In this document: positions 1,059-36,753 of the stretch, piece by piece
Position numbering within the stretch: position 1 is the first letter of the stretch
How the letters are laid out: every line of letters begins with the position of its first letter
Source: Citrobacter phage Shae_phiSM
Strand: one strand, 5' to 3'
DNA: 36,753 bases
Sequence record: OR565851
The notes under the pieces: generated by a model
What the model was told of the DNA's origin: nothing
Databases searched by the model: none
Seen by the model: only the letters and a program-made list of their open reading frames with translations
Translations under genes and position numbers: made by a program

Positions 1059-1062
1059 TTTA

Positions 1063-4745: not shown

Positions 4746-5257
4746 TGGCTGTACCAAAACATCTTCGCTTTTTTACGTTGTTTGTGGATGGTGAAAACGA
4801 AGTGGGTAAAGTGACATCCGTCACGCCGCCCAAACTGACGCGCAAAACCGACAGCTATCGTGGTGGTGGCATGATGGGGGCGGTAAGTATTGATCTCGGT
4901 CTGGACGACTCCGCGCTTGATGCGAGTTTTGTTATGGGGGGAGCTGTTCGTGCGCTGTTCCTTAAATATGGCGGCACGATTGACGGCACGCTGCTGCGTT
5001 TTGCGGGTGAATACTACACCGATGCAGAAAGCGATCTGTATGAAATCGAGATGCGCGGGCGTGTGACGGAAATTGATATGGGGGAAGCCAAACAGGGCGA
5101 AGCCACATCACACACTTACGCTGTCAAAAACACCTACTACAAGCTGAGCGTTAACGATCGCCCGCTGTGGGAAATCGACCTGTTGAACCACATCTACCGG
5201 AAGGACGGCAAGGACATTGTGCCTGACCGTATCCGTTCCGCGCTTGGGCTTGGCTGA
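4745..5257 (+). CDS. FII: tail tube protein
   Basis: 170-aa ORF immediately after the sheath gene; P2 FII-like. Confidence 0.9.
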   Translation: MAVPKHLRFFTLFVDGENEVGKVTSVTPPKLTRKTDSYRGGGMMGAVSIDLGLDDSALDASFVMGGAVRALFLKYGGTIDGTLLRFAGEYYTDAESDLYEIEMRGRVTEIDMGEAKQGEATSHTYAVKNTYYKLSVNDRPLWEIDLLNHIYRKDGKDIVPDRIRSALGLG

Positions 5258-9154: not shown

Positions 9155-9190
9155 AAAAACCGCTAATGGTCAGATTAGCGGTTTTCATTT
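9155..9190. terminator. bidirectional rho-independent terminator between convergent U and invertase genes
   Basis: aaaaaccgctaat-ggtcag-attagcggtttt: 12-bp perfect stem flanked by an A-run and a T-run; the invertase stop codon lies in the stem. Confidence 0.7.
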
Positions 9191-9774
9191 TCCTGAGTCT
9201 GCCCGGTTGTTTCTTCAGTCTGTATATCGCCTACAGGGTGATAACGATAAATCGTCGATGTGCCAATGCCGTAAATTATTGCCAGTTGTTTTCTGTCGTG
9301 CCCGTTTTTGATTAGCCTTGCTATTTGCTCATGCTGTTCTTTTGTCAGCTTCGGTCGACGTCCGCCTGTGCGCCCCCTTGCGCGCGCTGCCGCCAGCCCG
9401 GCCAGTGTACGTTCAACAATTAATTCACGTTCCATTTCAGCCAGGGCACCCATCACGTGGAAGAAAAAACGCCCCATTGGAGAAGATGTGTCTATGCTGT
9501 CGGTCAGACTGCGAAAATTAATCCCTCGCTCCCGTAGTTCCCCGACGAGAGAAATCAGATGTTTCATGCTTCGCCCGAGGCGATCCAGTTTCCAGACAAC
9601 CAGCGTGTCACCTTTTTGAAGGCGCTTTAAAGCGCGTTTTAATCCCGGTCGGTCTGTCTTTGTCCCGCTTAATTTATCTTCAAATATTTGTTCACATCCT
9701 GCACAAACAAGAGCGTTTCGTTGCAGGTCTGTATTCTGGTCATTTGTTGATACCCTTACATAGCCAATCAGCAC
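9175..9774 (-). CDS. serine DNA invertase (Gin/Hin/Cin/Pin family)
   Basis: ORF 9175..9792 trimmed to GTG at 9774 (SD GGGAGA upstream); begins LIGYVRVSTNDQNTDLQRNAL... with the catalytic-Ser motif, a resolvase domain and a C-terminal HTH; adjacent to a gix/hix-like crossover site. Confidence 0.9.
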   Translation of the reverse strand: MLIGYVRVSTNDQNTDLQRNALVCAGCEQIFEDKLSGTKTDRPGLKRALKRLQKGDTLVVWKLDRLGRSMKHLISLVGELRERGINFRSLTDSIDTSSPMGRFFFHVMGALAEMERELIVERTLAGLAAARARGRTGGRRPKLTKEQHEQIARLIKNGHDRKQLAIIYGIGTSTIYRYHPVGDIQTEETTGQTQENENR

Positions 9775-9828
9775 ACTGAATCTCCCGTCCAAAAGCGCAA
9801 ATCATGCCATGCAGGCCAGAAACGGCCA

Positions 9829-9854
9829 TTATTTAAAACCTCGGTTTACGAGAA
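9829..9854. repeat. gix/hix-like crossover site 1 (left end of invertible segment)
   Basis: ttatttaaaacctcggtttacgagaa; inverted copy at 12507-12532; shared core aacctcggtttac; resembles invertase crossover sites as I remember them. Confidence 0.75.
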
Positions 9855-10550
9855 CTCGGCACAAGCGGGGAGAAAATACCGTTACTCAGTACAGCGAATA
9901 CCTGGACTAATCGACAAACATTCAGCGGTGGCCTTTCTGGGGAACTGTCCGGCAATGCCGCTACTGCAACAAAGCTGAAAACAGCACGAAAAATTGCTGG
10001 AGTTGGTTTTGATGGTTCTAGCGATATTTCAATTAGTGCCAAAAATGTCAATGCATTTGCACTCCGACAAACAGGTAATACTGTTAATGGTGATACATCC
10101 GTTGGATGGAATTGGGATAGTGGTGCATATAACGCCCTGATTGGTGGTGCATCTGCATTAATTCTTCACTTTAATATAAATGCTGGTAGCTGTCCTGCCG
10201 TACAATTCCGTGTGAATTATAAAAATGGTGGCATTTCCTACAGGTCAGCTCGTGATGGTTATGGGTTTGAATTAGGTTGGTCAGATTTCTATACCACGAC
10301 ACGAAAACCATCAGCGGGAGATGTTGGTGCATATACGCAGGCAGAATGTAACTCAAGGTTTATTACAGGTATTCGCCTTGGCGGTCTGTCATCTGTTCAG
10401 ACATGGAATGGTCCCGGCTGGTCTGACAGGTCAGGTTATGTCGTTACGGGTTCAGTTAACGGAAACCGTGATGAATTAATTGATACAACTCAGGCAAGGC
10501 CAATTCAGTATTGCATTAATGGAACGTGGTATAACGCGGGGAGTATTTAA
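9837..10550 (+). CDS. silent alternative tail-fibre C-terminal cassette (no start; fuses to H on inversion)
   Basis: Frame open from 9837 (just after a stop) through the crossover core to 10550; encodes NLGLRELGTSGEK...SGGLSGE... and ends INGTWYNAGSI, parallel to the current H C-terminus ...INGTWYNVAQV; core ctc-ggt-tta is in the same frame as in H. Confidence 0.7.
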   Translation, partial: NLGLRELGTSGEKIPLLSTANTWTNRQTFSGGLSGELSGNAATATKLKTARKIAGVGFDGSSDISISAKNVNAFALRQTGNTVNGDTSVGWNWDSGAYNALIGGASALILHFNINAGSCPAVQFRVNYKNGGISYRSARDGYGFELGWSDFYTTTRKPSAGDVGAYTQAECNSRFITGIRLGGLSSVQTWNGPGWSDRSGYVVTGSVNGNRDELIDTTQARPIQYCINGTWYNAGSI

Positions 10551-10552
10551 TT

Positions 10553-11086
10553 ATGATGCACTTAAAAAATATTACTGCTGGCAACCCTAAAACAAAAGAG
10601 CAATACCAGCTAACAAAGCAATTTAACATCAAATGGCTTTATACAGAGGATGGGAAAAACTGGTATGAGGAACAAAAGAACTTTCAGCCTGATACGTTGA
10701 AAATGGTCTATGACCACAACGACGTTATTATTTGTATTGAAAAGGATGTTTCAGCAATTAATCCAGAAGGCGCAAGCGTCGTTGAGGTTCCTGATATTAC
10801 AGCAAATCGCCGGGCTGATATTTCGGGTAAATGGATGTTCAAAGATGGCGTAGTGATAAAGCGAACTTATACCGAGGAGGAACAGAGGCAGCAGGCAGAG
10901 AATGAAAAGCAAAGCCTATTGCAACTTGTCAGGGATAAAACCCAGCTATGGGACTCACAGCTACGGCTGGGTATCATTTCCAACGAGAATAAACAAAAAT
11001 TAACCGAGTGGATGCTCTATGCGCAGAAGGTCGAATCCACAGACACCTCCAGCCTGCCAGTAACGTTTCCAGAACAACCAGAATGA
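10553..11086 (+). CDS. tail fibre assembly protein, alternative (silent orientation)
   Basis: 177 aa, [22 protein letters not shown]..., paralogue of the 11115..11642 gene; directly follows the alternative C-terminal cassette. Confidence 0.85.
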   Translation: MMHLKNITAGNPKTKEQYQLTKQFNIKWLYTEDGKNWYEEQKNFQPDTLKMVYDHNDVIICIEKDVSAINPEGASVVEVPDITANRRADISGKWMFKDGVVIKRTYTEEEQRQQAENEKQSLLQLVRDKTQLWDSQLRLGIISNENKQKLTEWMLYAQKVESTDTSSLPVTFPEQPE

Positions 11087-11114
11087 AACAAGGCCCGCTA
11101 TCGGGCCTTAATTT

Positions 11115-11642
11115 TTACTCAGGCTTTTGTGGCCATTCGGGATTTGCTGTATCCACACGGCTGACCAGAACGCTGTAGCGTTCCCATGACTCCAGTCGTG
11201 TGCGTTCCTCATCCGTCGCCATATTCAGCCTGACAGCGCGTTCCAGTGGCTGAATAACGCTTTCAGCTTCAGAAAGCAACGCGACCTTTTGTGATTCGGC
11301 CTGTTGTTGCTGTTCGTCTGCTGTATAAATCCGCTTAAACACAGTTCCGTCCTTAAACATCCACTTCCCTGAATCATCGGCACGACGATTGGCTGTTATA
11401 TCAGGAACTTCAACGACGCTATAGCCTTCAGGGTTAAGCGTGGAGGCATCTTTGGTGATGGCGACAATAATATTATTCTCGTCATAAAGAATTTTTATTG
11501 TGTCTTCCTGAAAGTTCTTTAATTCCTCGTACCAGTTTTTCCCGTCTTCGGACCATAACCAGATAACATCAAAATTCTTTGTTAGCTGATATTGTTCTTT
11601 TGTTTTTGGATTTCCGGACTTAATATTTTTTAAATGCTGCAT
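11115..11642 (-). CDS. G: tail fibre assembly protein (currently expressed orientation)
   Basis: 175 aa, [22 protein letters not shown]...; directly downstream of H. Confidence 0.85.
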
Positions 11643-11645
11643 AAT

Positions 11646-13664
11646 TTACACCTGTGCGACGTTATACCATGTGCCATTGATGTATTTTTGTATTGGTCTG
11701 AAGATGGCTTCATCATCGCCATCTACTTCACCAATGATTCTTAATCCGGTAATTGCGTGTCCGGCTTTTTCATAACGACCACCACGCGCCATCAATTGAA
11801 CAACACGCGTACCCAGGCGAACATCTTTTACATAGCGTGAATCAAAATTCCCCCAGTTGCTGGGCTGTATCTGACCGTTAACAGAAAATATTACCGAGTT
11901 ATCTGTATTTCGCTGGCTATAGAAATGCCATCCTGCCTCATCGCCTAACTCTGCAACTACTGGACGGGTTGAAGCACCCCATAAATTAAACGTTGCATTC
12001 TTTGTGGAGGTGTTGGAGCTGGATAGCGAGAACTTTTTACTATCACCTGCCTGAATGTTTTTAAAAGCAATAGCAACTCCATTCTGAAAGCGGAATACTC
12101 GCTGACTATTAGCGTAAACATCCAGAATACCATCACCATTCTGTTTGAATCCGGTGTCATTATCACCAAGAACAATAGAGCTACCACCTAACGCATTCGT
12201 CGTACCAACTCCAAGACTGCCATTAATGACGGCATTTACCAGAATATTTAGTGCATCCCATTTCAGCGTCATCAGGTCTTTTGTTGTGGTGCTCTGGCGG
12301 CTTCTCCATTTGAAATATTCATTGCCGTTGTCGCCTGTTTCAAACCACATGTATGAATCAGTGTCACCATCAGCATCATTTTTAAATCCAATCTTCGCCC
12401 AGTCAGTATTTCGAATCCAGGCAAGGATTGAGTCATTTTCAAAAGTAAGCCCACCGGACAAGGTATCGCCATTTTTTTGCACGGCGTTACCAGCCCTGTT
12501 TACCGTTTCCTGTAAACCGAGGTATTCGATAACGGCGGCAACGGTCGATTTCGCAAGAATATCCCGCCCGACTTTTGTCAGAGTTGCCAGGCTGGCGACA
12601 TCATTCCCCGTAAAATACGGAAACCTGTCTGCCGCAGTAGCAAGCCCGGCCAGCGCCGTCAGGGTGGCATCTTTCGGTTGCTTACCCGCAAGCGCGTTAG
12701 TCATGGTGGTCGCAAAATTCGGGTCGTTGCCCAACGCCGCCGCCAGCTCGTTCAGCGTGTTCAGTGCATCAGGTGACGAATCTACAAGGGCGGCAATCGC
12801 AGCCATAACGAAAGCCGTGTTTGCGATTTGGGTATTATTCGTTCCCTGTCGCGCAGTTGGTGTTGTTGGCGTTCCGGTCAGCGCAGGACTGTTTAAGGGC
12901 GCTTTCTTGTTCGTTTCATCCATTACCGCCTTAACCGCTTTCGATGTCGCGGCCAGTGTTTCAGACGTGCTGTTGGTGGCACTACTGAGCTGGACTATCC
13001 CTTTTTGTGCCGTCGTGGCGTCCTGAGCGGTATATTTTGCGTTAGCAAGGTCATACGCGGCCTTTACTGCTTTCGGCGTTGCAGCCTGCGTTTCAGACAC
13101 GCTGTTAGTGGCGCTACTGAGTTGAACAAAGCCTTTTGCGGTCAGCGAGGCGTCCGGGTGACGTCGTGACTGTTCATGCTCTTTCAGTTTGTCATCCACG
13201 TAATCCACTGTGGCCATCACCATGGTGTTATCCACGGTAAGCGCCACGGTGGCTGTGCTGGATACGGTCAGAATGGTGCGAAATGTTTGTGCACGTCCGG
13301 ACCCTTCGGCAACGGTTGGCTTGTAACTTTCGGCAGTATTGCCCACCGCGATTAAATCGCCGTGCTCATCAAACACACCAATTTCCCGGATCCAGAATCC
13401 GCCCGTTTCAGGAGGAATAACCAGCTCCGCAATAATGCGGTTCTGATGTGTTGCGTCCAGGATGACGCGATTAACAGTATGTCGCCACACCTCATGCACC
13501 AGACGGGTCTGCTTACTGTCTGGTGTGGGCAACGTGCCGCCACCGTCGCCCACGGCCATATGAGTCAGGCGGACAGGCTTACCATCTGGCGCGGCTGCCT
13601 GCGCTAATTTTTTTGCACCCGTATCGGTGATAACGGTTTTAAATTTTCGTGTTGTGGTACTCAT
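11646..13664 (-). CDS. H: tail fibre protein H; constant N-terminus outside and variable C-terminus inside the invertible segment
   Basis: 672-aa ORF; the crossover site at 12507-12532 lies inside the coding region (encodes ...IEYLGLQETV...). Confidence 0.9.
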   Translation of the reverse strand: MSTTTRKFKTVITDTGAKKLAQAAAPDGKPVRLTHMAVGDGGGTLPTPDSKQTRLVHEVWRHTVNRVILDATHQNRIIAELVIPPETGGFWIREIGVFDEHGDLIAVGNTAESYKPTVAEGSGRAQTFRTILTVSSTATVALTVDNTMVMATVDYVDDKLKEHEQSRRHPDASLTAKGFVQLSSATNSVSETQAATPKAVKAAYDLANAKYTAQDATTAQKGIVQLSSATNSTSETLAATSKAVKAVMDETNKKAPLNSPALTGTPTTPTARQGTNNTQIANTAFVMAAIAALVDSSPDALNTLNELAAALGNDPNFATTMTNALAGKQPKDATLTALAGLATAADRFPYFTGNDVASLATLTKVGRDILAKSTVAAVIEYLGLQETVNRAGNAVQKNGDTLSGGLTFENDSILAWIRNTDWAKIGFKNDADGDTDSYMWFETGDNGNEYFKWRSRQSTTTKDLMTLKWDALNILVNAVINGSLGVGTTNALGGSSIVLGDNDTGFKQNGDGILDVYANSQRVFRFQNGVAIAFKNIQAGDSKKFSLSSSNTSTKNATFNLWGASTRPVVAELGDEAGWHFYSQRNTDNSVIFSVNGQIQPSNWGNFDSRYVKDVRLGTRVVQLMARGGRYEKAGHAITGLRIIGEVDGDDEAIFRPIQKYINGTWYNVAQV
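12507..12532. repeat. gix/hix-like crossover site 2 (inside H)
   Basis: ttcctgtaaaccgaggtattcgataa; reverse complement matches site 1 at about 21 of 26 positions, with an identical 13-bp core. Confidence 0.75.
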
Positions 13665-14197: not shown

Positions 14198-15086
14198 TGC
14201 GCCCACCTTCGCTGATGGTGAATGACTCACAGCGCGCCGCCTGTATGTCGCTGATGGCCATATTCTGTGTGGGTTCGATTATCTCCACGCGTTGCACACC
14301 GTGCACATGCAGTGCGGCAGCAATGGCGGACAACGCCACGTCCTGACCGATAAGCCCCTGCTCAGCCAGCCACTTCCTGAACGACGATTCAGCCGCAGCC
14401 AGAATAGGTTCGGATTCCGGGCCGGGATAAAAGTACAGTTTTGCATTCAGCCGCCATGTCACGATTCTGGCACTCTGTACGGTCAGGCGGTCGGCCACCG
14501 GGCGGGCATCCTCTGCATTCAGAACGGCGCTAACGGTATTAAGCAACGCCTCCGTTGCTGTGCCGTCGCCTTCAGTGGACAGGATGGAAACCGTCACATT
14601 TGCCGGAGACGGACTGATAGCCCGCGCATCACGCACCAGACCGCTGGCGCTGCGGGCAAAATACTCGTATGCACCTGACGGGCCAGCAACACTCAGGCCG
14701 TCGTACGCCCGCTGCGCCCGCAGTCTCAGCGAGGTGTCGCTCTCCATCACCGCGTCGGTGGTATCCGTTGCCGGAGTGATAACCAGGCGCTTTGTGTTCA
14801 TATTGCCCGCGAGGTTGTCCAGGTCTGTCCCGGCGCTGTGGCTTAACATGCAGGCGCGTGCACCCTCATTGACCCGCTGGCGTAACAGCATTTCACGAAA
14901 CGCTGTTGTCTGGGCGATAACGTTCAGTGGTTCCGATTCCAGCTCCAGCGCGGCGGAGACGGCTTCACGCTGTTCGGCGGGATAAGCCGCAATCATCATG
15001 GCCTTTGTGTCAGCCAGAATTGCCTCAAAGTCAGGCTCCGCGATGATGGCGGGTTCCGGTAACTGGGAAAGGTCAACGGCAGGCAT
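14190..15086 (-). CDS. J: baseplate assembly protein J
   Basis: 298-aa ORF in gpJ position and size. Confidence 0.85.
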   Translation of the reverse strand: MPAVDLSQLPEPAIIAEPDFEAILADTKAMMIAAYPAEQREAVSAALELESEPLNVIAQTTAFREMLLRQRVNEGARACMLSHSAGTDLDNLAGNMNTKRLVITPATDTTDAVMESDTSLRLRAQRAYDGLSVAGPSGAYEYFARSASGLVRDARAISPSPANVTVSILSTEGDGTATEALLNTVSAVLNAEDARPVADRLTVQSARIVTWRLNAKLYFYPGPESEPILAAAESSFRKWLAEQGLIGQDVALSAIAAALHVHGVQRVEIIEPTQNMAISDIQAARCESFTISEGGRNE

Positions 15087-15089
15087 GAT

Positions 15090-15440
15090 TTACTCCCTCA
15101 GCGTGATGGTTAATTCAACATTCTGCATGGTCTGCATGACAGTGCCCGACAGAGTCACCCCGGCGCGGCCTCCTGCCTTCCAGACAACGTCGATGGCATC
15201 CAGGGCAATGCGGGGTTCCCATCGTGTCAGCGCAATCACGGCAGCACTCATGCATTGCAGACGCGTGGTGTTATTCATGGGTTCGTCAATCAAATCAGGC
15301 ACAAGGCTGCCATATTCCCGTCGCATAACCCGGCTTGCCAGCGGGGTGGTCAGGATGTCCCTGACTGACTGTTTCAGGTGCTCCATATCGTTCAGGTTTC
15401 CCGTCCCGTCCGGATTCATTCCTGTGTAGCGGGTTGTCAC
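15090..15440 (-). CDS. W: baseplate protein W (gp25-like)
   Basis: 116-aa ORF between V and J. Confidence 0.8.
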   Translation of the reverse strand: MTTRYTGMNPDGTGNLNDMEHLKQSVRDILTTPLASRVMRREYGSLVPDLIDEPMNNTTRLQCMSAAVIALTRWEPRIALDAIDVVWKAGGRAGVTLSGTVMQTMQNVELTITLRE

Positions 15441-16018
15441 TGCGGGCCTCCTGTCGAATCGCTGCCGCCTTTCACGCCACCGTGTTTATGCGTATGCACG
15501 GTAATGCCGTTTGAGGTGAAATTGCCGCCGCTGTGCGTGATATTGCCGCTCATCTTTCCTCCTTTTGTGACGTCAAGCGTCGCCGTTCTCAGAAGGTTTG
15601 TGCATTCCACGACGGGCGTATCCAGTTTCACGCTGACGGATGCCTGCAAAGTGGCCGTTTTCATGCCGCTGGCGCTCAGTGCGCCTGCGTCCGCGTCGTA
15701 GCGGAACACCGCGCCATCCGGCGCGCTGACCACGATTTCTTTCAGGCTTTTGCCGGGGGCCGGAATGGTATCACTCCACAGACTGCCGATTATCATGGCG
15801 GTTTCCGGGTTGCCGCCGATGCAGGCAATTGCCACCTGTTCGCCTGGTGATGGCGGCAGCCACACATTGAAGGCTCCCGCGCGCGTGGTGTTCCAGCGCA
15901 ACCAGCCTGTTTCCAGTTCGCCGCTGCGAACGCGCACGCACCAGGATTCCTCATCAACTTCAGAGATGATCCCGGTGCGGATGATGTTGCTCAGCAGTCG
16001 CATGAGTTCTGCGCTCAC
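15437..16018 (-). CDS. V: baseplate spike/assembly protein V
   Basis: 193-aa ORF with Gly-rich C-terminus; 4-bp overlaps with its neighbours. Confidence 0.8.
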   Translation of the reverse strand: MSAELMRLLSNIIRTGIISEVDEESWCVRVRSGELETGWLRWNTTRAGAFNVWLPPSPGEQVAIACIGGNPETAMIIGSLWSDTIPAPGKSLKEIVVSAPDGAVFRYDADAGALSASGMKTATLQASVSVKLDTPVVECTNLLRTATLDVTKGGKMSGNITHSGGNFTSNGITVHTHKHGGVKGGSDSTGGPQ

Positions 16019-16659
16019 CGTACAGCCTCCGCAATCCGGCCCAGCACCGTGTTATAAATCAGGCGCTCATCTGCCTGGCTGATACCCAACAGCTCACGTA
16101 CCGGGTAATCGGTGAAAATGCCCGGCGCAACCTGATCGCGCTCACCGAACTGATGAACGCGTGCAATACGTGCGGCCACGCCGCTGTAACCCACCGTCAC
16201 ACCGGAAGTATCCGCACGGGCTTTCAGGTAGCGGGCGGTGCGCAGTTTTACGAACATGGGGACGCGCTTTGTGCTGTCCTGGTTGATGCGCCGGGTGCGT
16301 ATTTCCAGAAAACGGTCGATGTCATCCCGGTAAAACGTGCGGATATTGTTTTTATCCTCATCCCACCCGGTAATGGTTCGCCCGTATTTCCCCGTGTCGT
16401 GATGCCAGTTTTTCAGCGTGCGTGCTTCGTTATTCCAGATAAAGCGAATGCGTTCCTGTATCCGGGTTACGCGGCGTCTGCGTGGTGTCCACGCGGTCCC
16501 GTCCGGCGCTTTCTGTGACCGGATACGCGCCTGCTGGGCGCGGCGTAAATCCTGTGCCAGCTTTCTGGCGATGTTATTAATGGCCTGCTGATTCAGGCTG
16601 TCGCGGATGGCCTCAAAGGTTTCATCCACACGGGTGAATGCCTTATCCATCGCTTTCAC
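16015..16659 (-). CDS. S: virion morphogenesis / tail completion protein (gpS-like)
   Basis: 214-aa ORF in gpS position; longer than P2 S, start uncertain. Confidence 0.65.
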   Translation of the reverse strand: MKAMDKAFTRVDETFEAIRDSLNQQAINNIARKLAQDLRRAQQARIRSQKAPDGTAWTPRRRRVTRIQERIRFIWNNEARTLKNWHHDTGKYGRTITGWDEDKNNIRTFYRDDIDRFLEIRTRRINQDSTKRVPMFVKLRTARYLKARADTSGVTVGYSGVAARIARVHQFGERDQVAPGIFTDYPVRELLGISQADERLIYNTVLGRIAEAVR

Positions 16660-17110
16660 CCCACGTCACATCCTGGAATACATGCGACCAGTCGCCTTCG
16701 GAAGAGGGCAGGCGGGGTTTTGGCTCCGGCAGGTGTTCTGCCTGCGGTGTGCCCTGACTGCTGCGCGTGATGCGAACGCGTTCCCGCAGGGGGAGCGTAA
16801 ACAGGAGATCGGCGCTGTCATCGTCATTGATAACGGCGGAGAATTTGATGTCCTGATTACGCTCAGGGTTGAGCAACAACTGTGGCTGATTTTCGGATAA
16901 CCACGCCAGCAGCGGCAGCGTGAGGTCATCCAGCTCCCCGGCGTAATCCATGACAAACATCACCATCTGATAGCGGTAAACAAACGATGGGGTTTCTCCT
17001 GTCGTTTCAATGTTGCCGCTCTCCACGAAAATGGTGAATTTTTCCGGGTTGGCCTGACACCATCGGCATGAACGGGTCATGGCTTCACGCAGGGAATCAG
17101 TTTTCAGCAT
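16643..17110 (-). CDS. R: tail completion protein R
   Basis: 155-aa ORF in gpR position. Confidence 0.75.
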   Translation of the reverse strand: MLKTDSLREAMTRSCRWCQANPEKFTIFVESGNIETTGETPSFVYRYQMVMFVMDYAGELDDLTLPLLAWLSENQPQLLLNPERNQDIKFSAVINDDDSADLLFTLPLRERVRITRSSQGTPQAEHLPEPKPRLPSSEGDWSHVFQDVTWGESDG

Positions 17111-17387
17111 GGTTGTTATCCTCGTTGTTCAGTCGTTGCAGCCTGCGCTGTTCCAGTAATTCAATGGCCCGTTTATCCGCGTTACAGGTTTCCAGTGCAT
17201 CCAGAAGGCGGTCGCCCCATATACCGAGATTTCCCCATGTGGGAGTATCAGGGAAGGGGGGAGGCGTTACCGGTATGGTCAGCGTCTGTGGTATAAGCCG
17301 GACTGACGGCGCTGGCAGTGGCGCGTTCTGCGTGCCTGCGCAACCTGTCAGTAAAACGAGCGTCAGGCAAAGCGTGGGCGCATTCAT
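17097..17387 (-). CDS. lysC: o-spanin lipoprotein (LysC/Rz1-like)
   Basis: MNAPTLCLTLVLLTGCAG...: lipobox LTGC, proline-rich; overlaps the 3' end of the i-spanin gene in another frame; ORF trimmed to the ATG at 17387. Confidence 0.7.
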   Translation of the reverse strand: MNAPTLCLTLVLLTGCAGTQNAPLPAPSVRLIPQTLTIPVTPPPFPDTPTWGNLGIWGDRLLDALETCNADKRAIELLEQRRLQRLNNEDNNHAEN

Positions 17388-17655
17388 CTTTTGCAATATC
17401 GTTACGTAGCTGTTCACGTCTGGCCTCTCCGTCCTGATTGCGTTGCTGATTTTCCGTGCGGAGTTGTGCCAGCACCTGCTGCATATCCTGTACCCCGGCG
17501 CTGATGATATTCAGGGTGTCGACGGTACTTTTCAGGGTGCTGGCCTGCGCTTCGTTTCTGGCGTTCTCCCGGCCCAGCGACCACGACAGACGCACGGATG
17601 CTCCCCATACGGCAATCAGAAGAAAAGCGACGCCCGGAGAAGTCCATAACCTCAT
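17248..17655 (-). CDS. lysB: i-spanin (LysB/Rz-like)
   Basis: 135 aa with N-terminal TM helix then a charged, coiled-coil-like region; directly downstream of the endolysin gene. Confidence 0.7.
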   Translation of the reverse strand: MRLWTSPGVAFLLIAVWGASVRLSWSLGRENARNEAQASTLKSTVDTLNIISAGVQDMQQVLAQLRTENQQRNQDGEARREQLRNDIAKDECAHALPDARFTDRLRRHAERATASAVSPAYTTDADHTGNASPLP

Positions 17656-18197
17656 ACCGCCACGCGTTCCTTTATCCAGCCGTAGACAAACGACTCGTTG
17701 GCTTCGCGTTTTTCTGCCAGCTCCAGATAGCGTTCACCCTGTGTACAGTTCAGTGCAGCTAACATCACCATCTCGCCGTCCCGACCGCGTTTTTCCAGAT
17801 ATGCACGCAATGCGTTAATCGTGCGTGGGCCAGTGCGTCCGTCCGTGTCCATATCGGGATACAGTTTCCCGCCCTGATTGAATGCGTTCAGCCAGCGCTG
17901 AAGCATTCTGGTTGCCACAGACGGTCCCATATTTACTCCGGTGTCACACAGTTCTGCGGCAATATCCGGGGACAGCTTCGCTATCTGATCAAAACGCGGT
18001 CCGTACCAGTAATCAGCTTCAAGGATTTCCAGTGCCTGTCCGCGCGTTAAATCACGCATATCGCCACGGTATCCGTGCGCCCGTGCCACCTTTTCAGTGA
18101 TGCCCCATTTTGTCGGACCGCCTCTGTCATCCGGGTGATTGACGTAGCCGCCTTCTTTGCCAAGAACGGCATCAAAAATTTCGTCTTTCGATTTCAT
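17652..18197 (-). CDS. endolysin, GH108-type muramidase with C-terminal peptidoglycan-binding domain
   Basis: 181 aa; N-terminal EGGYVNHPDDRGGPTKWGIT motif typical of glycoside hydrolase family 108; sits between holin and spanins. Confidence 0.75.
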   Translation of the reverse strand: MKSKDEIFDAVLGKEGGYVNHPDDRGGPTKWGITEKVARAHGYRGDMRDLTRGQALEILEADYWYGPRFDQIAKLSPDIAAELCDTGVNMGPSVATRMLQRWLNAFNQGGKLYPDMDTDGRTGPRTINALRAYLEKRGRDGEMVMLAALNCTQGERYLELAEKREANESFVYGWIKERVAV

Positions 18198-18251
18198 TTC
18201 GTCACCTCTGTGAATGATTTTTATGGTGATTACCGGCTTTAAGCCTGCGAC

Positions 18252-18575
18252 TTATTCATCTCCCTTTTGGGTTATGCGGTTAAAGGCGGCAATGATCTTG
18301 TCGCGTGCTTTTTCTGCGCCCATAAAACCGATAGATGCGCCGAAAAACGTCACGGCATCTTCAGGAACTCCGAAGAAGCGCAACGACCCGGCCACGGCCA
18401 TGGCAAGAACGCCGCACGCCAGCGATCCCGTTACGGTCTGAACCAGCGTTCGTCCGTCATAAAGACTCATCAGCGCGGAAATGCTGACCGCCGCGCCTGC
18501 TGCATACACCGCTGGCAGGTGGTCAAAGAGCCACGCAATAACCTGCTCTGTGATCCCTGTTTGAATGGTGCTCAC
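18252..18575 (-). CDS. holin
   Basis: ORF 18252..18794 trimmed to GTG at 18575 (SD GGGGAGAG upstream; 18576+ overlaps gpX); about 107 aa with 2-3 predicted TM helices and a charged C-terminus. Confidence 0.65.
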   Translation of the reverse strand: MSTIQTGITEQVIAWLFDHLPAVYAAGAAVSISALMSLYDGRTLVQTVTGSLACGVLAMAVAGSLRFFGVPEDAVTFFGASIGFMGAEKARDKIIAAFNRITQKGDE

Positions 18576-18577
18576 TA

Positions 18578-18778
18578 CTACTCTCCCCACAACTGAATCA
18601 TTTCTCGTTTCTTCTTCTCCGGCTCCGGCATCTCCACGTCCTGCCCGGCGTCCAGAAATACCTGCTGACAGAGTCCGGGGTTGGCATCCAGCACCTTTTC
18701 GGTGACGCCCTGCGTCGTGCCGTAGTACCGGAAACAGAGCGAATCCACGGTGTCGCCTTCCAGTGCCTTCACTTTCAT
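18578..18778 (-). CDS. X: tail protein X
   Basis: MKVKALEGDTVDSLCFRYYG...VLDANPGL... is P2 gpX-like; its ATG overlaps the gpL stop by 1 nt. Confidence 0.8.
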   Translation of the reverse strand: MKVKALEGDTVDSLCFRYYGTTQGVTEKVLDANPGLCQQVFLDAGQDVEMPEPEKKKREMIQLWGE

Positions 18779-19281
18779 CAGCACAACTCCGCAAAGATTC
18801 GCGGGCGGCACAGAATGTCAGAGATGGCCCAGCTCACATCGCGCCACAAATCCGATGTCTGTATATCCAGTGCGTCCGCCCGGCGGTCGCCCTTGTCCGT
18901 TGTGTCCGCATCGCGGTAACGCTCCAGAATCAGGGCGCGTGTGGCGGTATAAACAGCATTGCGCCAGTGCCAGAGATTGACGCTTTCTCCGTTAATTACG
19001 GGTGCCGGAACATCGGCCAGCGTCTGATGGCCAGCCGCCTGCTGTTCCTGCTGCCATGCTTCCAGCTCGCGGGTAACGTGTGCCACAGCCCCGGTGGCGG
19101 TATGCAGCAGGCGGGAGGTGGTCACACGTCCCGGCAGTCGTACCGCCAGACGCAGCTCACGCAGCACAATATCCGGCCAGAATGCACCCGCTGAAATACG
19201 GGTATCACCATCATCGGTATCGGTGATGTCGTCCTCTGCGGGTCTGGGGTTGGTTCTGGCAACCATACTCATGGGGTTCAC
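18778..19281 (-). CDS. L: head completion/stabilisation protein L
   Basis: 167-aa ORF with SD AGGAGTG, directly downstream of M. Confidence 0.8.
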   Translation of the reverse strand: MNPMSMVARTNPRPAEDDITDTDDGDTRISAGAFWPDIVLRELRLAVRLPGRVTTSRLLHTATGAVAHVTRELEAWQQEQQAAGHQTLADVPAPVINGESVNLWHWRNAVYTATRALILERYRDADTTDKGDRRADALDIQTSDLWRDVSWAISDILCRPRIFAELC

Positions 19282-19374
19282 TCCTGAAAAAAATCGGGCG
19301 GTGGGTGCGCGGTGTAAACGGTCACGGAGTCAGACCGGAACACCGCGTACGCCGCCCGCTGACGGGGTCAGTCG

Positions 19375-20175
19375 TTAACCGCGCTTCGCCTTCTGCGTCG
19401 CGGTGGTTTTTCGTGTTGCAGGCTTCCGCGTTGTCTTTTTACTTTTGCTGCTTTCGTCCTGCGCCTGCTGTGCGCTGGCGTCTTCTGGTGCGGCTGCGGA
19501 ATCGGCTTTTTTCAGGGCGCGGGAAAGGGTTGCAATCTCGCGTTTCACACCTGCGTTCGGGTTCAGGTGCATCGCTTCGCGCAGCAGCTTCAGTGATAAG
19601 GCCATGTTGTCTGCATCGGTCAGACCACGACGGGCAAAGGCGCACGCCTTGCATAATTTGGCGCGTACTTCGTCCGGCATATCCTGGTCTGTGACAATCT
19701 CCCGGAGGATGTCCAGTGGTTCGATAAAGGCGGACAAATCCGCGTCGGCATCCGTCCCGGCCTGCGTCAGCACCGGGTTGCAGATTTCTTCGGTCAGCAC
19801 TGTGGCAGCAGTACGGCCAAAGTTATCCGGCATGATGAGGTTGTGACGGACCACATACGCACCAATACGCAACGCCAGCGGAAGATCGCCGCAGTCAATC
19901 GCCCACACCATCAGCGTGGCAATCACTTCATCCTGCTGCCCGCCGTCAGCCTCCAGCGTTCCCTCAATCCAGCCGGAAAAATCCGGCAACAACTCTTTTT
20001 TGATGGCGGCTTTCGCGCTTCTGGCCTGTACGCCCTTAAGCCGGGCCTGTGCCAGACGCAGACGATACAGCACCTCTTCATGCGCGGTACGCGCGGCGTG
20101 GTCCACGCCTTCATTCGCCCGGCCTGCGCGCTGTGCCATCACGTTCTGCCAGTGTTGCTGTGCAGGAGTAATCAT
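19375..20175 (-). CDS. M: terminase endonuclease (small) subunit M
   Basis: 266-aa ORF with SD GGAGAG, basic C-terminal tail, gpM position. Confidence 0.8.
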   Translation of the reverse strand: MITPAQQHWQNVMAQRAGRANEGVDHAARTAHEEVLYRLRLAQARLKGVQARSAKAAIKKELLPDFSGWIEGTLEADGGQQDEVIATLMVWAIDCGDLPLALRIGAYVVRHNLIMPDNFGRTAATVLTEEICNPVLTQAGTDADADLSAFIEPLDILREIVTDQDMPDEVRAKLCKACAFARRGLTDADNMALSLKLLREAMHLNPNAGVKREIATLSRALKKADSAAAPEDASAQQAQDESSKSKKTTRKPATRKTTATQKAKRG

Positions 20176-20220
20176 TTGTTCTCTCCGTTACTGGCGGGCA
20201 TGATGCCCGCCGTGAGTTGA

Positions 20221-21273
20221 TTAGCTGTCGGCGAACTTCAGGCCAGTGACCATCGCGCACTTGCCATAGTCTTCAACGACATAAGCGTCATTGATGGACT
20301 GGTAGGTGGCGATGCGGTTGTATTCCGGCTCGTCTTTCATCAGGCGACGCATTGAACCTTTCTGCCAGTAAATCGACAGGTTGTTGAACGAGGTGATCAG
20401 CATCGTTGCATCCGGGAAGAACGGCGCAAGGAACACGCCCAGCCCGCCAATGGTGCGCGATGACAGGATGAGCTGCCCGGCAAGTAATTCCGCATTGGGA
20501 TTCTGGCCGCTGATGCTGTTCAGCACGGGCAGACGCAGCGAGTTAAACAGGTTGCGCCCCATAATCACCACAAGGTCGTCAGCTTCCTTGTGCCATTCAT
20601 CCAGCAGGGATGAACGCGCGTCCTGTACCAGTGCATCAGCGTTCGCATACTTACCCGCGTGCGCCACGGTGTTGTCCATGTTGCGGGAGGTCAGCGTCAC
20701 GTCATTCATAACGCGTTCGCTGGCGTCGGTTCTGATGTGCTCCAGCCATCCCACGTTAACGTCCTGAAGCAGCTTGTTGGTGCTGAAGTTGGACTCATCC
20801 GCGTGAGACGTGCCGTTGAAACCGATCATGATGCGGTCAAGCGCCACCTGTCGGGCAATCTGTGCGCTGATGCGGGACTGAAAATCAGGATGTGCCGCCC
20901 AGGCATCAAGCTGCGGATATGAAATAAACGTGTCGTAGTTCACCTGTTCGCACTGGTATTTGCGGTTTTTCAGATCAACCACGTTATTCGGGTTACGGCG
21001 TTTTGTGCCGTCATAACTGGTATTCGTGCGTGCAATTGGCCCGGTGGTGTCCAGGAGGATTTTTTCGCCTTTCTGGTCGGTCACGCCGATCACGTTAATT
21101 CTTTTCGTAAATTCGGTGCTTTCCTTTGAGGCGTTTTCAAAACGCTGCTGCACCGAGGGTTCCACGGTAAATCGCGATACCAGTGCGGAAACCGGAATAT
21201 TATTAAGCGACGCCTGCTGCGCCATATAGCAACCCAGCTTGTTGCGGGTAATATCTGACATCACCAGATTCAT
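20221..21273 (-). CDS. N: major capsid protein N
   Basis: 350-aa ORF; ...FTVEPSV... and overall P2 gpN-like. Confidence 0.9.
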   Translation of the reverse strand: MNLVMSDITRNKLGCYMAQQASLNNIPVSALVSRFTVEPSVQQRFENASKESTEFTKRINVIGVTDQKGEKILLDTTGPIARTNTSYDGTKRRNPNNVVDLKNRKYQCEQVNYDTFISYPQLDAWAAHPDFQSRISAQIARQVALDRIMIGFNGTSHADESNFSTNKLLQDVNVGWLEHIRTDASERVMNDVTLTSRNMDNTVAHAGKYANADALVQDARSSLLDEWHKEADDLVVIMGRNLFNSLRLPVLNSISGQNPNAELLAGQLILSSRTIGGLGVFLAPFFPDATMLITSFNNLSIYWQKGSMRRLMKDEPEYNRIATYQSINDAYVVEDYGKCAMVTGLKFADS

Positions 21274-21296
21274 AAAAAATTTGCTCCTTTGTCTTA

Positions 21297-22133
21297 TCAG
21301 AAGTCAGCCAGCTGGTCGGAGGCTGCACCTGTTGTGGTGAACCGGTTCTGCGGATCGCCGTCCTGCGTGCGCAGTTTTTCCTTCAGTGCTGCCAGCTCTG
21401 TGGTCAGTGACGTAATTTTCTGGCTGTCCTGCTGATGGCGGGTTTCCAGCACATTAAAACGGTCGATAATGTCGGCCTGTGACGTTGCGACGCCTTCCAC
21501 CGCTTCCTGAATACGGGAAAAACTGGCGTCATCCGCTTTGCGGCCACGGCCAATAATCCCCATTACGCGGTTAAACCACTGGGTGCCTTCTTCCTGGCGT
21601 TGTTCTGCCATTTCGATGATTTCAGACTCGATGGCTTCGGAAATGAGCGGTGCTTCACCCTGGACACTGTTGAACGTCATCACCGCCTGACGTTGCTGTG
21701 CCGTGAATTTCAGGCGCTCAGTGCCCAGGCTTGCCGGGGTGTCGGTCATCGCCAGCCCGACCAGATAGGCGCGCCCGTTAACGGAGAACTGCGGGTGCAG
21801 TTCGATACTGGAATAGATTTTCTTGCCGTCCGCGACAAGCTGCTTCATGCGCTCGGTCGGTTCGATTTCTGCATACAGCGCAGTACGTCCGGCCAGCGGA
21901 CCTTCCGTAATGTCTTCCGTACTCAGTGCGGTGACATCGCCCATTGCGGAAAATTCGCTTGACGGGCATGGCGAGAGATAGTGCTCAACGTTCACGCGGG
22001 CAGCGTAAACATCCGGGTTGAAGTTCTCGGCGGCTTCACGCAGATGTACCGGGCTGATTTCGCGGCCATCAACAGTTGATCCGGAGACAGCCACGCGAAA
22101 CTTTTTGCGGGATGTCTTTTTTTCATTAGCCAT
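21297..22133 (-). CDS. O: capsid scaffolding protein O
   Basis: ORF trimmed to ATG 22133 (MANEKKTSRKKFR..., SD GAGGGG); gpO-like. Confidence 0.85.
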   Translation of the reverse strand: MANEKKTSRKKFRVAVSGSTVDGREISPVHLREAAENFNPDVYAARVNVEHYLSPCPSSEFSAMGDVTALSTEDITEGPLAGRTALYAEIEPTERMKQLVADGKKIYSSIELHPQFSVNGRAYLVGLAMTDTPASLGTERLKFTAQQRQAVMTFNSVQGEAPLISEAIESEIIEMAEQRQEEGTQWFNRVMGIIGRGRKADDASFSRIQEAVEGVATSQADIIDRFNVLETRHQQDSQKITSLTTELAALKEKLRTQDGDPQNRFTTTGAASDQLADF

Positions 22134-22287
22134 AGTTTTTGCCCCTCTGACTGGTTCTTCAGTCATGATGGCAAAGCGTAACAGGCTGATACAAAGGGCT
22201 TTTGTTGTAAGAAAACGGCCAGAACAGGGGGTTAAGGAGAACGGTTTCGCGCGCGGGTAATCTTCCTGTAATTACTCAGGGGGAGCA
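22134..22287. promoter_or_regulatory. divergent late promoter region between O and P
   Basis: 154-bp gap between divergent capsid and terminase operons, as at P2 P_O/P_P; no motif confirmed by eye. Confidence 0.35.
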
Positions 22288-24039
22288 ATGATTCAGGACG
22301 CTTTTGTGCGCCAGCGTGCGCGGCAACTTTACTGGCAGGGTTATCCGCCCGCAGAAATATCACGTCTGATGGGAATAAACCCGAACACGATTTATGCGTG
22401 GAAAAAACGCGACCAGTGGGATGAAACGCCACCCGTGCAGCGTGTCACGCAGTCCATCGATGCGCGCCTCATCCAGCTTACTGAAAAACAGAATAAAACA
22501 GGCGGTGACTTTAAGGAAATAGACCTGCTGACCCGGCAGCTTAAAAAGCTGCATGATGGCCAGCCGGATGTGATGGCCGCAGGAAAGAAAGGCCGGGCGA
22601 AAAAACTCAAAAATCATTTCACGCCGGAACAGATTGCCGCACTGCGGGAAAAAATCATCAGCAGGCTGGAGTGGCATCAGCGGGGCTGGTTTGACTCCCT
22701 GACACTTTGCAGGGAAGCCGGGATACGTAACAGGATGATCCTGAAATCCCGACAGATTGGGGCGACCTGGTATTTTGCACAGGAAGCTCTGCTGATGGCG
22801 CTGCGTGACGATGTGGCGCAACCTTACCAGCGTAACCAGATTTTTTTGTCTGCGTCGCGTCGTCAGGCGTTCCAGTTTAAAAGCATTATTCAGAAGGCCG
22901 CGGCTGAAGTTGATGTGGAGCTGAAAGGGGGCGATAAAATCATCCTCTCCAACGGCGCAGAGCTGCATTTTCTCGGCACTTCTGCTGCGTCGGCACAGTC
23001 CTATACGGGCAATTTTTATTTTGATGAATTTTTCTGGGTCAGTCGCTTTGCTGAACTGCGCAAGGTGGCTGGCGCTATGGCAACCCTCAGCGGACTGCGG
23101 CGCACCTACTTCTCCACGCCATCCACCGAAACGCACGAGGCATACGCCTACTGGAACGGCGACCGCTGGAACGAGAAAAAGGCCTCGCATAAACGCCAGC
23201 GTTTTTCTGTGGACTGGAAAACGCTGCATAACGGGCTTATCTGCCCTGACCGGACGTGGCGGCAAATTGTCACGCTGGAAGATGTGGTTAATCACGGCTG
23301 GAAACACACCGATATCGACGAAATTCGTGATGAAAACACCGAAGACGAGTTCCTCAATCTCTATATGTGTGAGTTTGTCCGCGAAGGGGAATCGGCATTT
23401 AACCTGAATATCCTGATTGGCTGCGGTGTTGACGGATACGACGACTGGAAAGACTGGAAACCTTTTGCTCCCCGCCCGATGGGGAATCGTCCGGTATGGA
23501 TTGGGTATGACGCAAACGGCAGCAGTGGCAACGGCGACAGCGGCGCTGTGTCCGTGGTGGTTCCTCCGTCTGTTCCTGGTGGCCGTTTTCGAACGGTGGA
23601 GACGCGACGCGTTCAGGGGCTGGAGTTTGAAGAACAGGCCAGAGTCATTGAAGAGTTCACGTGTCGCTACAACGTGGAACACATCGGCATTGATGTGACG
23701 GGCGGGAACGGGGAGGCTGTTTATCAGATAGTGAAACGGTTTTTCCCTGCCGCTATTCCGTACACCTTCACGCTGTCATCAAAACGGTCGCTGGTACTGA
23801 AAATGCTGCAAATAATGCGTGCCGGGCGGTGGGAATACGATCGCGCCGAACGCGAGCTGGTCGCGGCCTTTAACGCCGTGCGTAAGGTGAAAACACCGGG
23901 CGGCTTTATCACTTACGAAACGGACCGCGCGAGGGGGATCAGCCACGGCGACCTTGCGTGGGCAACCATGCTTGCTGTCATTAACGAACCAATTGGCGGC
24001 GAAGGAGAAAACGAGCGTTTCACGGTTATGGAGTTCTGA
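22288..24039 (+). CDS. P: terminase ATPase (large) subunit P
   Basis: 583-aa ORF with SD AGGGGGAG; gpP-like. Confidence 0.9.
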   Translation: MIQDAFVRQRARQLYWQGYPPAEISRLMGINPNTIYAWKKRDQWDETPPVQRVTQSIDARLIQLTEKQNKTGGDFKEIDLLTRQLKKLHDGQPDVMAAGKKGRAKKLKNHFTPEQIAALREKIISRLEWHQRGWFDSLTLCREAGIRNRMILKSRQIGATWYFAQEALLMALRDDVAQPYQRNQIFLSASRRQAFQFKSIIQKAAAEVDVELKGGDKIILSNGAELHFLGTSAASAQSYTGNFYFDEFFWVSRFAELRKVAGAMATLSGLRRTYFSTPSTETHEAYAYWNGDRWNEKKASHKRQRFSVDWKTLHNGLICPDRTWRQIVTLEDVVNHGWKHTDIDEIRDENTEDEFLNLYMCEFVREGESAFNLNILIGCGVDGYDDWKDWKPFAPRPMGNRPVWIGYDANGSSGNGDSGAVSVVVPPSVPGGRFRTVETRRVQGLEFEEQARVIEEFTCRYNVEHIGIDVTGGNGEAVYQIVKRFFPAAIPYTFTLSSKRSLVLKMLQIMRAGRWEYDRAERELVAAFNAVRKVKTPGGFITYETDRARGISHGDLAWATMLAVINEPIGGEGENERFTVMEF

Positions 24040-36660: not shown

Positions 36661-36753
36661 TTTTTTCAGATTAAACAGCAGTTTGCAAATGGGCGTTTGT
36701 TAATAAAGGAGCCTTAGATTGTCAGAGACTGAAAAAGGGTTAAAAATCCTTGT

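Follow-up and report, generated by a model that had tools for sequence, protein, structure and literature searches.

The window analysed here is the whole stretch of 36,753 nucleotides of Citrobacter phage Shae_phiSM (sequence record OR565851). Three exact primers and the published ORF table match it to Citrobacter rodentium phage PhiSM (prophage CRP38), which is temperate and P88-like (Xuanwuvirus). The window carries a lysis cassette on the minus strand at positions 17097-18575, where 17097 is the o-spanin stop and 18575 is the GTG start of the holin. A first-pass annotation made from the letters had proposed four lysis genes at this place, in the order holin, GH108 muramidase with peptidoglycan-binding domain, i-spanin, and o-spanin. 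Pfam and PHROG matches, all on the minus strand, confirmed both the genes and their order. The cassette is located in the late structural operon, between the tail genes X and R. Its upstream neighbour encodes tail protein X (18578..18778, minus strand; PF05489, 1.7e-20; 98.5% identity to P88 X) and belongs to the same late operon, and its downstream neighbour encodes the tail completion protein R (16643..17110, minus strand; PF06891, 4.6e-40; 100% identity to P88 R).

The genes of the lysis cassette

The holin (18252..18575, minus strand, 107 aa) has a GTG start preceded by GGGGAGAG. It matches PF05106 (6.6e-19; 68.6 bits against a cutoff of 23.8, with 94 of 99 model positions aligned) and phrog_126 (5.7e-33), which is a holin/anti-holin family, and its sequence places it in the lambda S family. 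The score against the NCBIfam equivalog TIGR01594 was 51.5 bits, under the cutoff of 55.05, and we regard the protein as a diverged member of this family and not as an equivalog. In a crude hydropathy scan of the holin, the charge-free hydrophobic stretches at residues 19-39 and 43-65 are clear and a third, at residues 74-87, is shorter and weaker. The C-terminal tail is charged (KARDK...RITQKGDE). The holin has no dual-start (antiholin/holin) motif, as its N terminus reads V/M-S-T-I-Q-T-G, without a second Met and without a basic residue. There is also no lysA-like gene in the cassette.

Between the holin and endolysin genes is a non-coding spacer of 54 nt (18198..18251, minus strand), which holds the endolysin's own Shine-Dalgarno sequence (AGAGGTGA). 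The RNA fold of this spacer is not significant (z = -1.8), and therefore we do not claim a regulatory hairpin. It accompanies only the GH108 allele of P88-like prophages and is absent from lambdoid loci.

The soluble endolysin (17652..18197, minus strand, 181 aa) consists of two domains. Residues 9-91 (nt 17925-18173, minus strand) form the GH108 catalytic domain and align to positions 2-85 of the 85 of the PF05838 (Glyco_hydro_108) model (1.1e-26; 93.6 bits, cutoff 21.2). C-terminal to it, residues 95-179 (nt 17661-17915, minus strand) form the PG_binding_3 domain (PF09374, 4.8e-25; 88 bits, cutoff 24.6). Both families had been named in the first-pass annotation. The score against NCBIfam NF040573 was 68.8, under its cutoff of 240. 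No signal or SAR segment was found in the endolysin, where the top hydropathy over a 19-residue span was 0.54. A SAR or signal-anchored endolysin was considered and rejected, because the protein lacks a hydrophobic segment.

The i-spanin (17248..17655, minus strand, 135 aa) begins with an ATG that overlaps the endolysin stop by 4 nt (ATGA). It matches phrog_214, an Rz-like spanin family (1.1e-39), and its weak match to the Pfam family DUF2570 is below the gathering score. It has a single N-terminal membrane anchor, with the hydrophobic segment at residues 7-23, and one periplasmic cysteine, C92. The o-spanin is a LysC/Rz1-like outer-membrane lipoprotein (17097..17417, minus strand, 106 aa when counted from GTG 17417) that matches PF23793 LysC (7.8e-13), phrog_3001 (3e-25), and phrog_456 (2.6e-15). 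Its start is ambiguous and may be GTG 17417, which has the Shine-Dalgarno sequence GGAGAGG 6 nt upstream, ATG 17387, or the 17366 chosen by PGAP. The lipobox is L-T-G-C with Ala at +2 (there is no Asp at this position), the protein contains 10% Pro, and a second Cys is present at position 78. Relatives share the GTG, the ATG, and the lipobox, the last in one case as the variant LTSC.

As had been proposed, the o-spanin gene overlaps both the 3' end of the i-spanin gene and gene R. It lies in the +1 frame of the i-spanin gene, overlaps it by 170 nt (GTG start) or 140 nt (ATG start), and extends 151 nt past the i-spanin stop, with the final 14 nt inside R. Both overlapping spanin ORFs are full length in 16 of 17 related loci, and this length conservation, together with the E-values, rules out chance ORFs. 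P2 lysB/lysC is the paradigm of the 'overlapped' spanin architecture (PMC6139136), and the layout here is the textbook P2 lysB/lysC/R arrangement, a two-component overlapped architecture. PGAP annotates lysC at the o-spanin site in E. coli relatives with a truncated start. Neither the published ORF table of PhiSM nor the RefSeq record of P88 lists the o-spanin, which can now be given its correct place.

Based on the lambda/P2 paradigm, lysis would proceed as follows. The lambda-S-family holin would build up in the inner membrane and then trigger, which would result in large holes. The soluble GH108 N-acetylmuramidase would exit through these holes and cut the glycan strands of the peptidoglycan, while its PG_binding_3 domain may dock on the peptide stem. 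The i-spanin, anchored in the inner membrane, and the o-spanin, an outer-membrane lipoprotein, would already be linked across the periplasm, and once the wall is gone the pair would disrupt the outer membrane. E. coli K-12 supports plaque formation by PhiSM, which is also released spontaneously (PMC6456863), and because the phage forms plaques the cassette must work. No ORF in the window is disrupted. We are confident that the cassette is functional in lysis and belongs to a temperate phage of the P88-like type (Xuanwuvirus, P2-type).

A scan for promoters and terminators over positions 15000-22600 gave no signal above that expected from shuffled sequence. Within the cassette, the coding strand had one weak hairpin, in the holin gene, and nothing else. 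The tRNA scan of the window found none, and in NCBIfam no cassette protein has an equivalog-level match. All four genes are already annotated in relatives by RefSeq. The paper on P88 gives no lysis-gene detail, and a 2026 survey of P2-like virus diversity (PMC13100340) is silent on endolysins, holins, and spanins. Elsewhere in the window, the VasI-like protein encoded at the left end is widespread. Overall, the cassette is ordinary for a P2-type phage, and finding it carries little weight beyond good annotation. Its one notable feature is the clean exchange of the endolysin for one of an unrelated type in comparison to the closest relatives.

Two endolysins in one conserved backbone

The closest comparison is with Escherichia phage P88 (Xuanwuvirus) and about 1,000 P88-like E. 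coli prophages, whose backbone is 97-98% identical and has the same gene order. The holin, i-spanin, and o-spanin are 91%, 91%, and 96% identical to the P88 proteins, respectively. The endolysin is different. P88 encodes an endolysin of 130 aa, an M15_4 metallopeptidase (PF13539 / phrog_465), and its start overlaps the holin stop (ATGA), whereas here the 181-aa GH108 protein follows the 54-nt spacer. A module of 640 bp (17635..18274, minus strand), delimited by blastn breakpoints, alignment, and identity in 60-nt blocks, replaces the 429-bp block that encodes the M15 enzyme in P88. This module runs from the last 8 codons of the holin gene through the spacer and the complete endolysin gene to the first 7 codons of the i-spanin gene, so that one breakpoint falls in the tail of the holin and the other in the head of the i-spanin. 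Its flanks are 97-98% identical to P88, and at both ends identity falls from this level to alignment noise within a few bases. The first-pass annotation had suggested modular exchange of lysis genes, and this suggestion holds in the form of a clean replacement of a single gene, as the same slot in P88 and about 1,000 E. coli prophages carries the M15 peptidase.

Lysis genes evolve quickly, and some relatives are degraded, with both spanin genes lost in ETEC1730 and in an IMG/VR locus (L053). The difference from the relatives might thus mean that one gene has diverged fast, or that the prophage is a remnant in decay, without any exchange of a module. This is extremely improbable, as identity to P88 drops sharply at both module ends, the two endolysins have unrelated folds (PF05838 and PF09374 versus PF13539), no ORF of the window is broken, and the phage is viable. 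The cassette is very probably mosaic: in a conserved backbone, only the endolysin gene is present as an alternative allele, exchanged by recombination with breakpoints in the holin and i-spanin genes.

The flanks of the cassette are present in about 1,065 of 5,426 complete E. coli genomes, and about 38 of these flank-bearing genomes have the GH108 module with at least 95% identity. M15 occupies the endolysin slot in 55 of 60 evenly sampled flank-bearing E. coli records. Outside P88-like backbones, related endolysins are found in lambdoid cassettes with two holins (Rac-SA53, SerU-LTIIb, and 67 IMG/VR contigs), and these are 86-90% identical to the endolysin here. However, the holins of those cassettes belong to PF16931 and PF05449 and not to PF05106, and no P2-type spanins or tail genes are nearby. 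In Rac-SA53 the endolysin gene is followed by LT-II toxin genes. Among the 35 loci of species-representative genomes and 80 IMG/VR loci searched, there was no direct donor of the 640-bp module, and both the endolysins at least 96% identical and the 54-nt spacer were confined to P88-like backbones.

The swap may have gone in either direction, with GH108 or M15 as the incoming allele. It is possible, although we consider it rather unlikely, that GH108 is the ancestral endolysin of the phage lineage and that the M15 peptidase is an incomer that later swept through E. coli. The GH108 alleles of P88-like loci form their own clade, with at least 96% identity in all 13 loci, whereas no lambdoid copy exceeds 90%, and therefore there is no recent donor. 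In addition, the GH108 allele is present in Citrobacter, Salmonella, and E. coli backbones, and the junction sequences differ among its carriers. On the other hand, M15 is the majority allele and is joined to both of its neighbours by tight ATGA overlaps, which one would expect if the gene had resided there for long, whereas the GH108 allele has the 54-nt non-coding spacer and divergent codons in the holin tail and i-spanin head that resemble imported flanks. Neither of these arguments against an ancestral GH108 is decisive.

More speculatively, and with a lower probability than we give to an ancestral GH108, the endolysin slot of P88-like prophages, located between holin and spanin genes that are nearly identical, might be a maintained polymorphism of two alleles and not a single chance event, with GH108 in the minority and M15 in the majority in E. 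coli, Citrobacter, and Salmonella alike. If so, selection would act on the choice of the peptidoglycan bond to be cut, with wall modifications, the LD-crosslink content, or host inhibitors as examples of its cause, and nature would provide near-isogenic phage pairs for testing such selection. PhiSM and P88 are a natural near-isogenic pair that differs in endolysin chemistry, and they could be used to see whether bond specificity has an effect on lysis timing or burst size.

Relation to the muramidases Sen1395 and TtsA

The endolysin is carried by a phage and closely related to the Sen1395/TtsA muramidases, which have been studied in Salmonella toxin secretion. Sen1395 of Salmonella Enteritidis, which has been crystallised, and TtsA of S. 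Typhi belong to the same family with a GH108 plus PG_binding_3 two-domain fold. In ungapped comparison, the endolysin is 86.6% identical to Sen1395 (PDB 6V3Z) and 69% identical to TtsA (6V40). The catalytic triad was defined in TtsA as E14, D19, and T28 (PMC6996933). In the endolysin, the catalytic glutamate E15 of the EGGY motif and T29 are conserved, and the third triad position is N20, as in Sen1395. In purified form, Sen1395 hydrolyses Salmonella peptidoglycan, and overexpression of this enzyme stops growth (PMC6996933). An N-acetylmuramidase activity of the endolysin is predicted from its 87% identity to Sen1395.

The similarity to TtsA, the typhoid-toxin secretion muramidase, raises the question of whether the GH108 enzyme could be a domesticated TtsA-like muramidase of 'type 10 secretion', which would make local openings in the wall so that a toxin or other cargo is exported without lysis. 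The 69% identity is in line with this, and the nearest non-P2 homologues (86-87% at the amino acid level) directly adjoin the LT-II enterotoxin genes of two lambdoid prophages, Rac-SA53 and SerU-LTIIb. The substrate groove, however, argues against it. In TtsA the groove is uncharged (I116, Q120, Q164, and N166), which confers LD-crosslink specificity, while Sen1395 cuts ordinary but not LD-crosslink-enriched peptidoglycan and cannot substitute for TtsA (PMC6996933). The corresponding residues in the endolysin are D117, R121, E165, and N167, of which the first three, all charged, are of the Sen1395 type and only N167 is of the TtsA type. Moreover, TtsA is an orphan, LD-crosslink-specific secretion muramidase, whereas the gene here belongs to a complete lysis cassette: a holin gene precedes it, a spanin pair follows it, and all of them lie in the late structural operon of a phage that forms plaques. 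Its neighbours include no toxin or cargo gene. Both hallmarks of the TtsA type, an uncharged groove and an orphan gene beside cargo outside a lysis operon, are thus missing, and a secretion role is very improbable.

Comparison with P2

The endolysin had also been suggested to be of a different type from that of P2 itself, and this is correct. P2 K has no GH108 match and belongs to phrog_90, the endolysin here belongs to phrog_315, and BLASTP between them gave E = 1.5. The holins differ as well, with PF05106 (lambda S family) here versus PF04550 for P2 Y, and lysA is present in P2 and absent here. The i-spanin is of phrog_214 versus phrog_89 in P2 and has no BLASTP similarity to LysB. None of the three elements of the P2 lysis cassette sensu stricto (Peduovirus; Y-type holin, K-type endolysin, and lysA) is therefore present. 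Because L, X, and R are only 36-49% identical to those of P2, the holin family differs too, and lysA is absent, P2 is a distant comparator, and the difference from P2 alone is no proof of exchange. The overall plan is nevertheless shared. The P2 lysis region (Y, K, lysA, lysB, and lysC, with lysC overlapping R) occupies the same late-operon slot between X and R. Both o-spanins belong to PF23793 LysC, and that of P2 is also in the +1 frame, begins inside the i-spanin gene, and ends inside R, although the overlap with R is 38 nt in P2 and 14 nt here.

Endolysin replacement in a P88-like backbone

The modestly new point of this analysis is solely the precise replacement of an M15 by a GH108 endolysin allele in a nearly identical backbone, together with its frequency in E. 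coli. The flanks of the lysis cassette are 97 to 98% identical to those of Escherichia phage P88 (Peduoviridae, Xuanwuvirus). Nucleotide identity to P88 is 96.6% from 19400 to 18275 and 98.2% from 17634 to 16500, and between 18275 and 17634 nothing can be aligned to P88. A multiple alignment and a profile of identity in 60-nt blocks against P88 showed that the break is sharp at both ends. The left joint comes after the holin codons ...A-A-F-N-R, so that the C-terminal residues are ITQKGDE in the window and RVKEKDE in P88, and the right joint lies about 7 codons into the i-spanin gene (MRLWTSPG versus MKLWPTLG in P88). The exchanged module measures 640 bp in the window (17635-18274) and 429 bp in P88, where it encodes a 130-aa Peptidase_M15_4 endolysin (PF13539, phrog_465) that has an ATGA overlap with both neighbors. 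The difference is a clean nonhomologous replacement of a single gene, and both breakpoints fall within flanking genes that are homologous. What the first-pass annotation proposed as modular exchange of lysis genes is thus seen, relative to P88, as the replacement of the endolysin gene. Mere divergence of one gene, or decay of the prophage, is contradicted by the sharp joints, by the unrelated folds of the GH108 and M15 endolysins, and by the viability of the phage.

Holin and i-spanin flanks are present in 1,065 of 5,426 complete E. coli genomes, but the whole GH108 version with the spanins is covered in just 32 of these 1,065. An "M15 family metallopeptidase" occupies the slot in 55 of 60 evenly spaced sampled records. 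In 38 of the 5,426 genomes, the GH108 module is present with an identity of at least 95%; a few of these genomes, ETEC1730 among them, have lost both spanin genes by deletion. In the ETEC1730 locus (L003; locus positions 3055-3641) and in IMG/VR locus L053, the segment corresponding to about 17150-17650 of the window is missing and R directly follows the endolysin gene. Outside this genome set, the GH108 allele is present in one Salmonella enterica genome and 13 IMG/VR contigs, every time in a P88-like backbone. Endolysin copies at least 96% identical occur only in P88-like loci (13/13), whereas copies at 86 to 90% occur solely in lambdoid two-holin cassettes with PF16931 and PF05449 holins (67/67). 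The 54-nt spacer between holin and endolysin genes is seen only with the P88-like GH108 allele. No direct donor of the module was found among 35 loci from species-representative genomes and 80 IMG/VR loci. GH108 as the incoming allele is mildly favored, because M15 is the majority allele and has tight gene overlaps; an exchange in the reverse direction is less likely but plausible.

Two further observations concern carriers of related endolysins. The nearest non-P2 homologue (87% at the amino acid level), a lambdoid endolysin in Rac-SA53 (locus L004; locus positions 2501-4276), is immediately followed by LT-IIa enterotoxin genes, and the holins are directly preceded by a pertussis-like toxin pair. 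An assembly labelled Vagococcus sp. WN89Y, a Gram-positive organism, contains (in two loci) a P88-like prophage that has spanins and a GH108 endolysin of 98% identity; probably the contigs are enterobacterial contamination or the assembly carries the wrong label.

Organization of the cassette

The late operon lies entirely on the minus strand, in the order capsid, terminase small subunit, L, X, lysis genes, and then R, S, V onward. Tail gene X (18578-18778) stops 2 bases before the holin gene (18252-18575; 107 aa), which starts with a GTG at 18575 preceded by GGGGAGAG. The holin matches PF05106, the lambda S holin family (68.6 bits; cutoff, 23.8), and phrog_126, "holin/anti-holin" (5.7e-33). 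There is no apparent antiholin, since no dual-start motif was found in the holin and no lysA homologue in the window. The 54-nt spacer carries the endolysin's own Shine-Dalgarno sequence, and its RNA fold is not significant; promoter and terminator scans inside the cassette gave nothing above chance. As in P2, the late operon promoter presumably drives expression. The endolysin (17652-18197; 181 aa) has a Glyco_hydro_108 domain at residues 9 to 91 (1.1e-26) and a PG_binding_3 domain at residues 95 to 179 (4.8e-25) in Pfam searches. Hydropathy analysis of the 181-aa protein revealed no hydrophobic segment, which rules out a signal-anchored endolysin and therefore indicates a soluble, holin-dependent enzyme. 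The endolysin stop and i-spanin start overlap as ATGA. The i-spanin (17248-17655; 135 aa) matches phrog_214, "Rz-like spanin" (1.1e-39), and has a single N-terminal hydrophobic anchor (residues 7 to 23). The o-spanin gene (17097-17417) begins within the i-spanin gene in the +1 frame, overlapping it by 170 nt from a GTG at 17417 or 140 nt from an ATG at 17387, and overlaps tail gene R (16643-17110; PF06891, 4.6e-40) by 14 nt. Its product matches PF23793, "Rz1-like lysis system protein LysC" (7.8e-13), as well as phrog_3001 and phrog_456, and has the lipobox L-T-G-C followed by Ala and 10% proline. The first-pass annotation had delimited a cassette at 17097-18575, limits that coincide exactly with the stop of the o-spanin and the start of the holin; it had read the order holin, GH108 muramidase with PG-binding domain, i-spanin, and o-spanin, with the o-spanin overlapping the i-spanin 3' end and R. 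All four products are profile matched in that order and both overlaps are present, so its finding was correct and well read.

We favor GTG 17417 as the probable o-spanin start. It has GGAGAGG six bases upstream and would give a signal peptide of 25 residues whose n-region contains a Lys, whereas ATG 17387 has no obvious ribosome-binding site and would give one of 15 residues. The PGAP starts, CTG 17366 in E. coli SW070912 and an ATG arising from a Thr-to-Met change in IHE3034, are merely about 8 residues ahead of the lipobox Cys and shorten the signal peptide. The GTG, the ATG, and the lipobox are conserved in relatives, and both overlapping spanin reading frames are full length in 16 of 17 loci. 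Neither the published PhiSM open reading frame table nor the P88 RefSeq record lists the o-spanin, in line with the way that gene callers are known to overlook o-spanins of the overlapped type (PMC6139136). A single periplasmic Cys is present in each spanin (C92 in the i-spanin and C78 in the o-spanin), which would be compatible with disulfide-linked complexes like those of lambda Rz/Rz1 (PMC6139136).

Phage identity and lysis enzyme

Three published PhiSM/CRP38 primers match the window exactly (21789-21807, minus strand; 19252-19273 and 36666-36685, plus strand) (PMC6456863), and the PhiSM table in the supplement of that paper agrees with the window end to end in order, strands, and sizes, including GpR (155 aa), DUF2570 (135 aa), "phage lysozyme" (181 aa), holin (107 aa), and X (66 aa). 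The window is therefore Citrobacter rodentium phage PhiSM (prophage CRP38) or a nearly identical copy. PhiSM is spontaneously released and forms plaques on E. coli K-12 (PMC6456863), which is indirect experimental evidence that the cassette works. The same paper assigned PhiSM to the Siphoviridae, with a noncontractile tail, from electron micrographs; P2-type tail sheath and tube genes lie at 3561-4745 and 4745-5257 (plus strand), and the paper's own table includes a 394-aa sheath protein, so morphology and genome are at odds. A 2-kb query (16900-18900) matched prophages in E. coli SW070912, IHE3034, and others over its full length at 98 to 99.6% identity; RefSeq names the products there "phage holin family protein," "glycoside hydrolase family 108 protein," "DUF2570 domain-containing protein," and "lysC: Rz1-like lysis system protein LysC."

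Elsewhere in the prophage, a ParM actin-like plasmid segregation protein (PF06406 and PF21523; 26702-27661, minus strand) has a small open reading frame adjoining upstream, and an E. coli relative has a partition/stability protein beside ParM, which suggests a plasmid-like maintenance function in this integrated phage lineage. The left end (165-1440, minus strand; GC, 37 to 41%) carries low-GC cargo that encodes a zinc-ribbon protein and a protein of the VasI family, which is associated with type VI secretion; in relatives, Hok/Gef and Ogr genes come next. The same VasI-like protein, identical in sequence, has a very wide distribution (1,818 index blocks). A resolvase-type DNA invertase adjoins two oppositely oriented tail-fiber assembly genes (9175-9792, minus; 10553-11086, plus; 11115-11642, minus). 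This region looks like an invertible host-range segment and is noncollinear with the closest E. coli relative, with about 9800-12600 lacking alignment.

The endolysin shares 86.6% identity, ungapped over 179 residues, with Salmonella Enteritidis Sen1395 (PDB 6V3Z) and 69% with S. Typhi TtsA (PDB 6V40). Purified Sen1395 hydrolyzes peptidoglycan prepared from ordinary cultures, and cells that overexpress it stop growing; TtsA acts specifically on LD-crosslinked peptidoglycan and serves in the export of typhoid toxin (PMC6996933). At the positions of the TtsA catalytic triad E14, D19, and T28 (PMC6996933), our enzyme carries E15, T29, and, like Sen1395, N20. The specificity groove consists of I116, Q120, Q164, and N166 in TtsA and D117, R121, E165, and D167 in Sen1395 (PMC6996933); the window protein has D117, R121, E165, and N167, and thus matches the phage/Sen1395 type at three of the four positions. 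These residues suggest a general N-acetylmuramidase acting on the normal DD-crosslinked wall. A secretion role like that of TtsA is unlikely, given the lysis operon context and the groove residues.

Lambda and P2 lysis is an established model, from which the mechanism here is taken by analogy. The holin would build up in the inner membrane and then trigger to form holes, the cytoplasmic muramidase released through this step would degrade the sacculus, and the preformed bridge of i-spanin and o-spanin would then disrupt the outer membrane.

Comparison with P2

The P2 gene order is X, Y, K, lysA, lysB, lysC, with lysC beginning within lysB and ending 38 nt into R. The spanin architecture of the window is that of P2, the paradigm of the "overlapped" spanins, which are the commonest class (228 of 528 two-component systems) in a spanin survey (PMC6139136). 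The o-spanins have PF23793 in common but are just about 27% identical; the i-spanins belong to phrog_214 in the window and phrog_89 in P2, with weak cross-matches; the holins belong to PF05106 and PF04550, respectively; and P2 has lysA, which the window lacks. As the first-pass annotation had proposed, the endolysin is unlike that of P2, since P2 K belongs to phrog_90, has no match in the GH108 search, and is unrelated. This difference is real, yet alone it is weak evidence for exchange, because even the structural proteins L, X, and R share no more than 36 to 49% identity between the two phages. The cassette is ordinary: it is already annotated, it comes from a published phage, its spanin architecture is textbook, and a close crystallized relative of its endolysin is already known.
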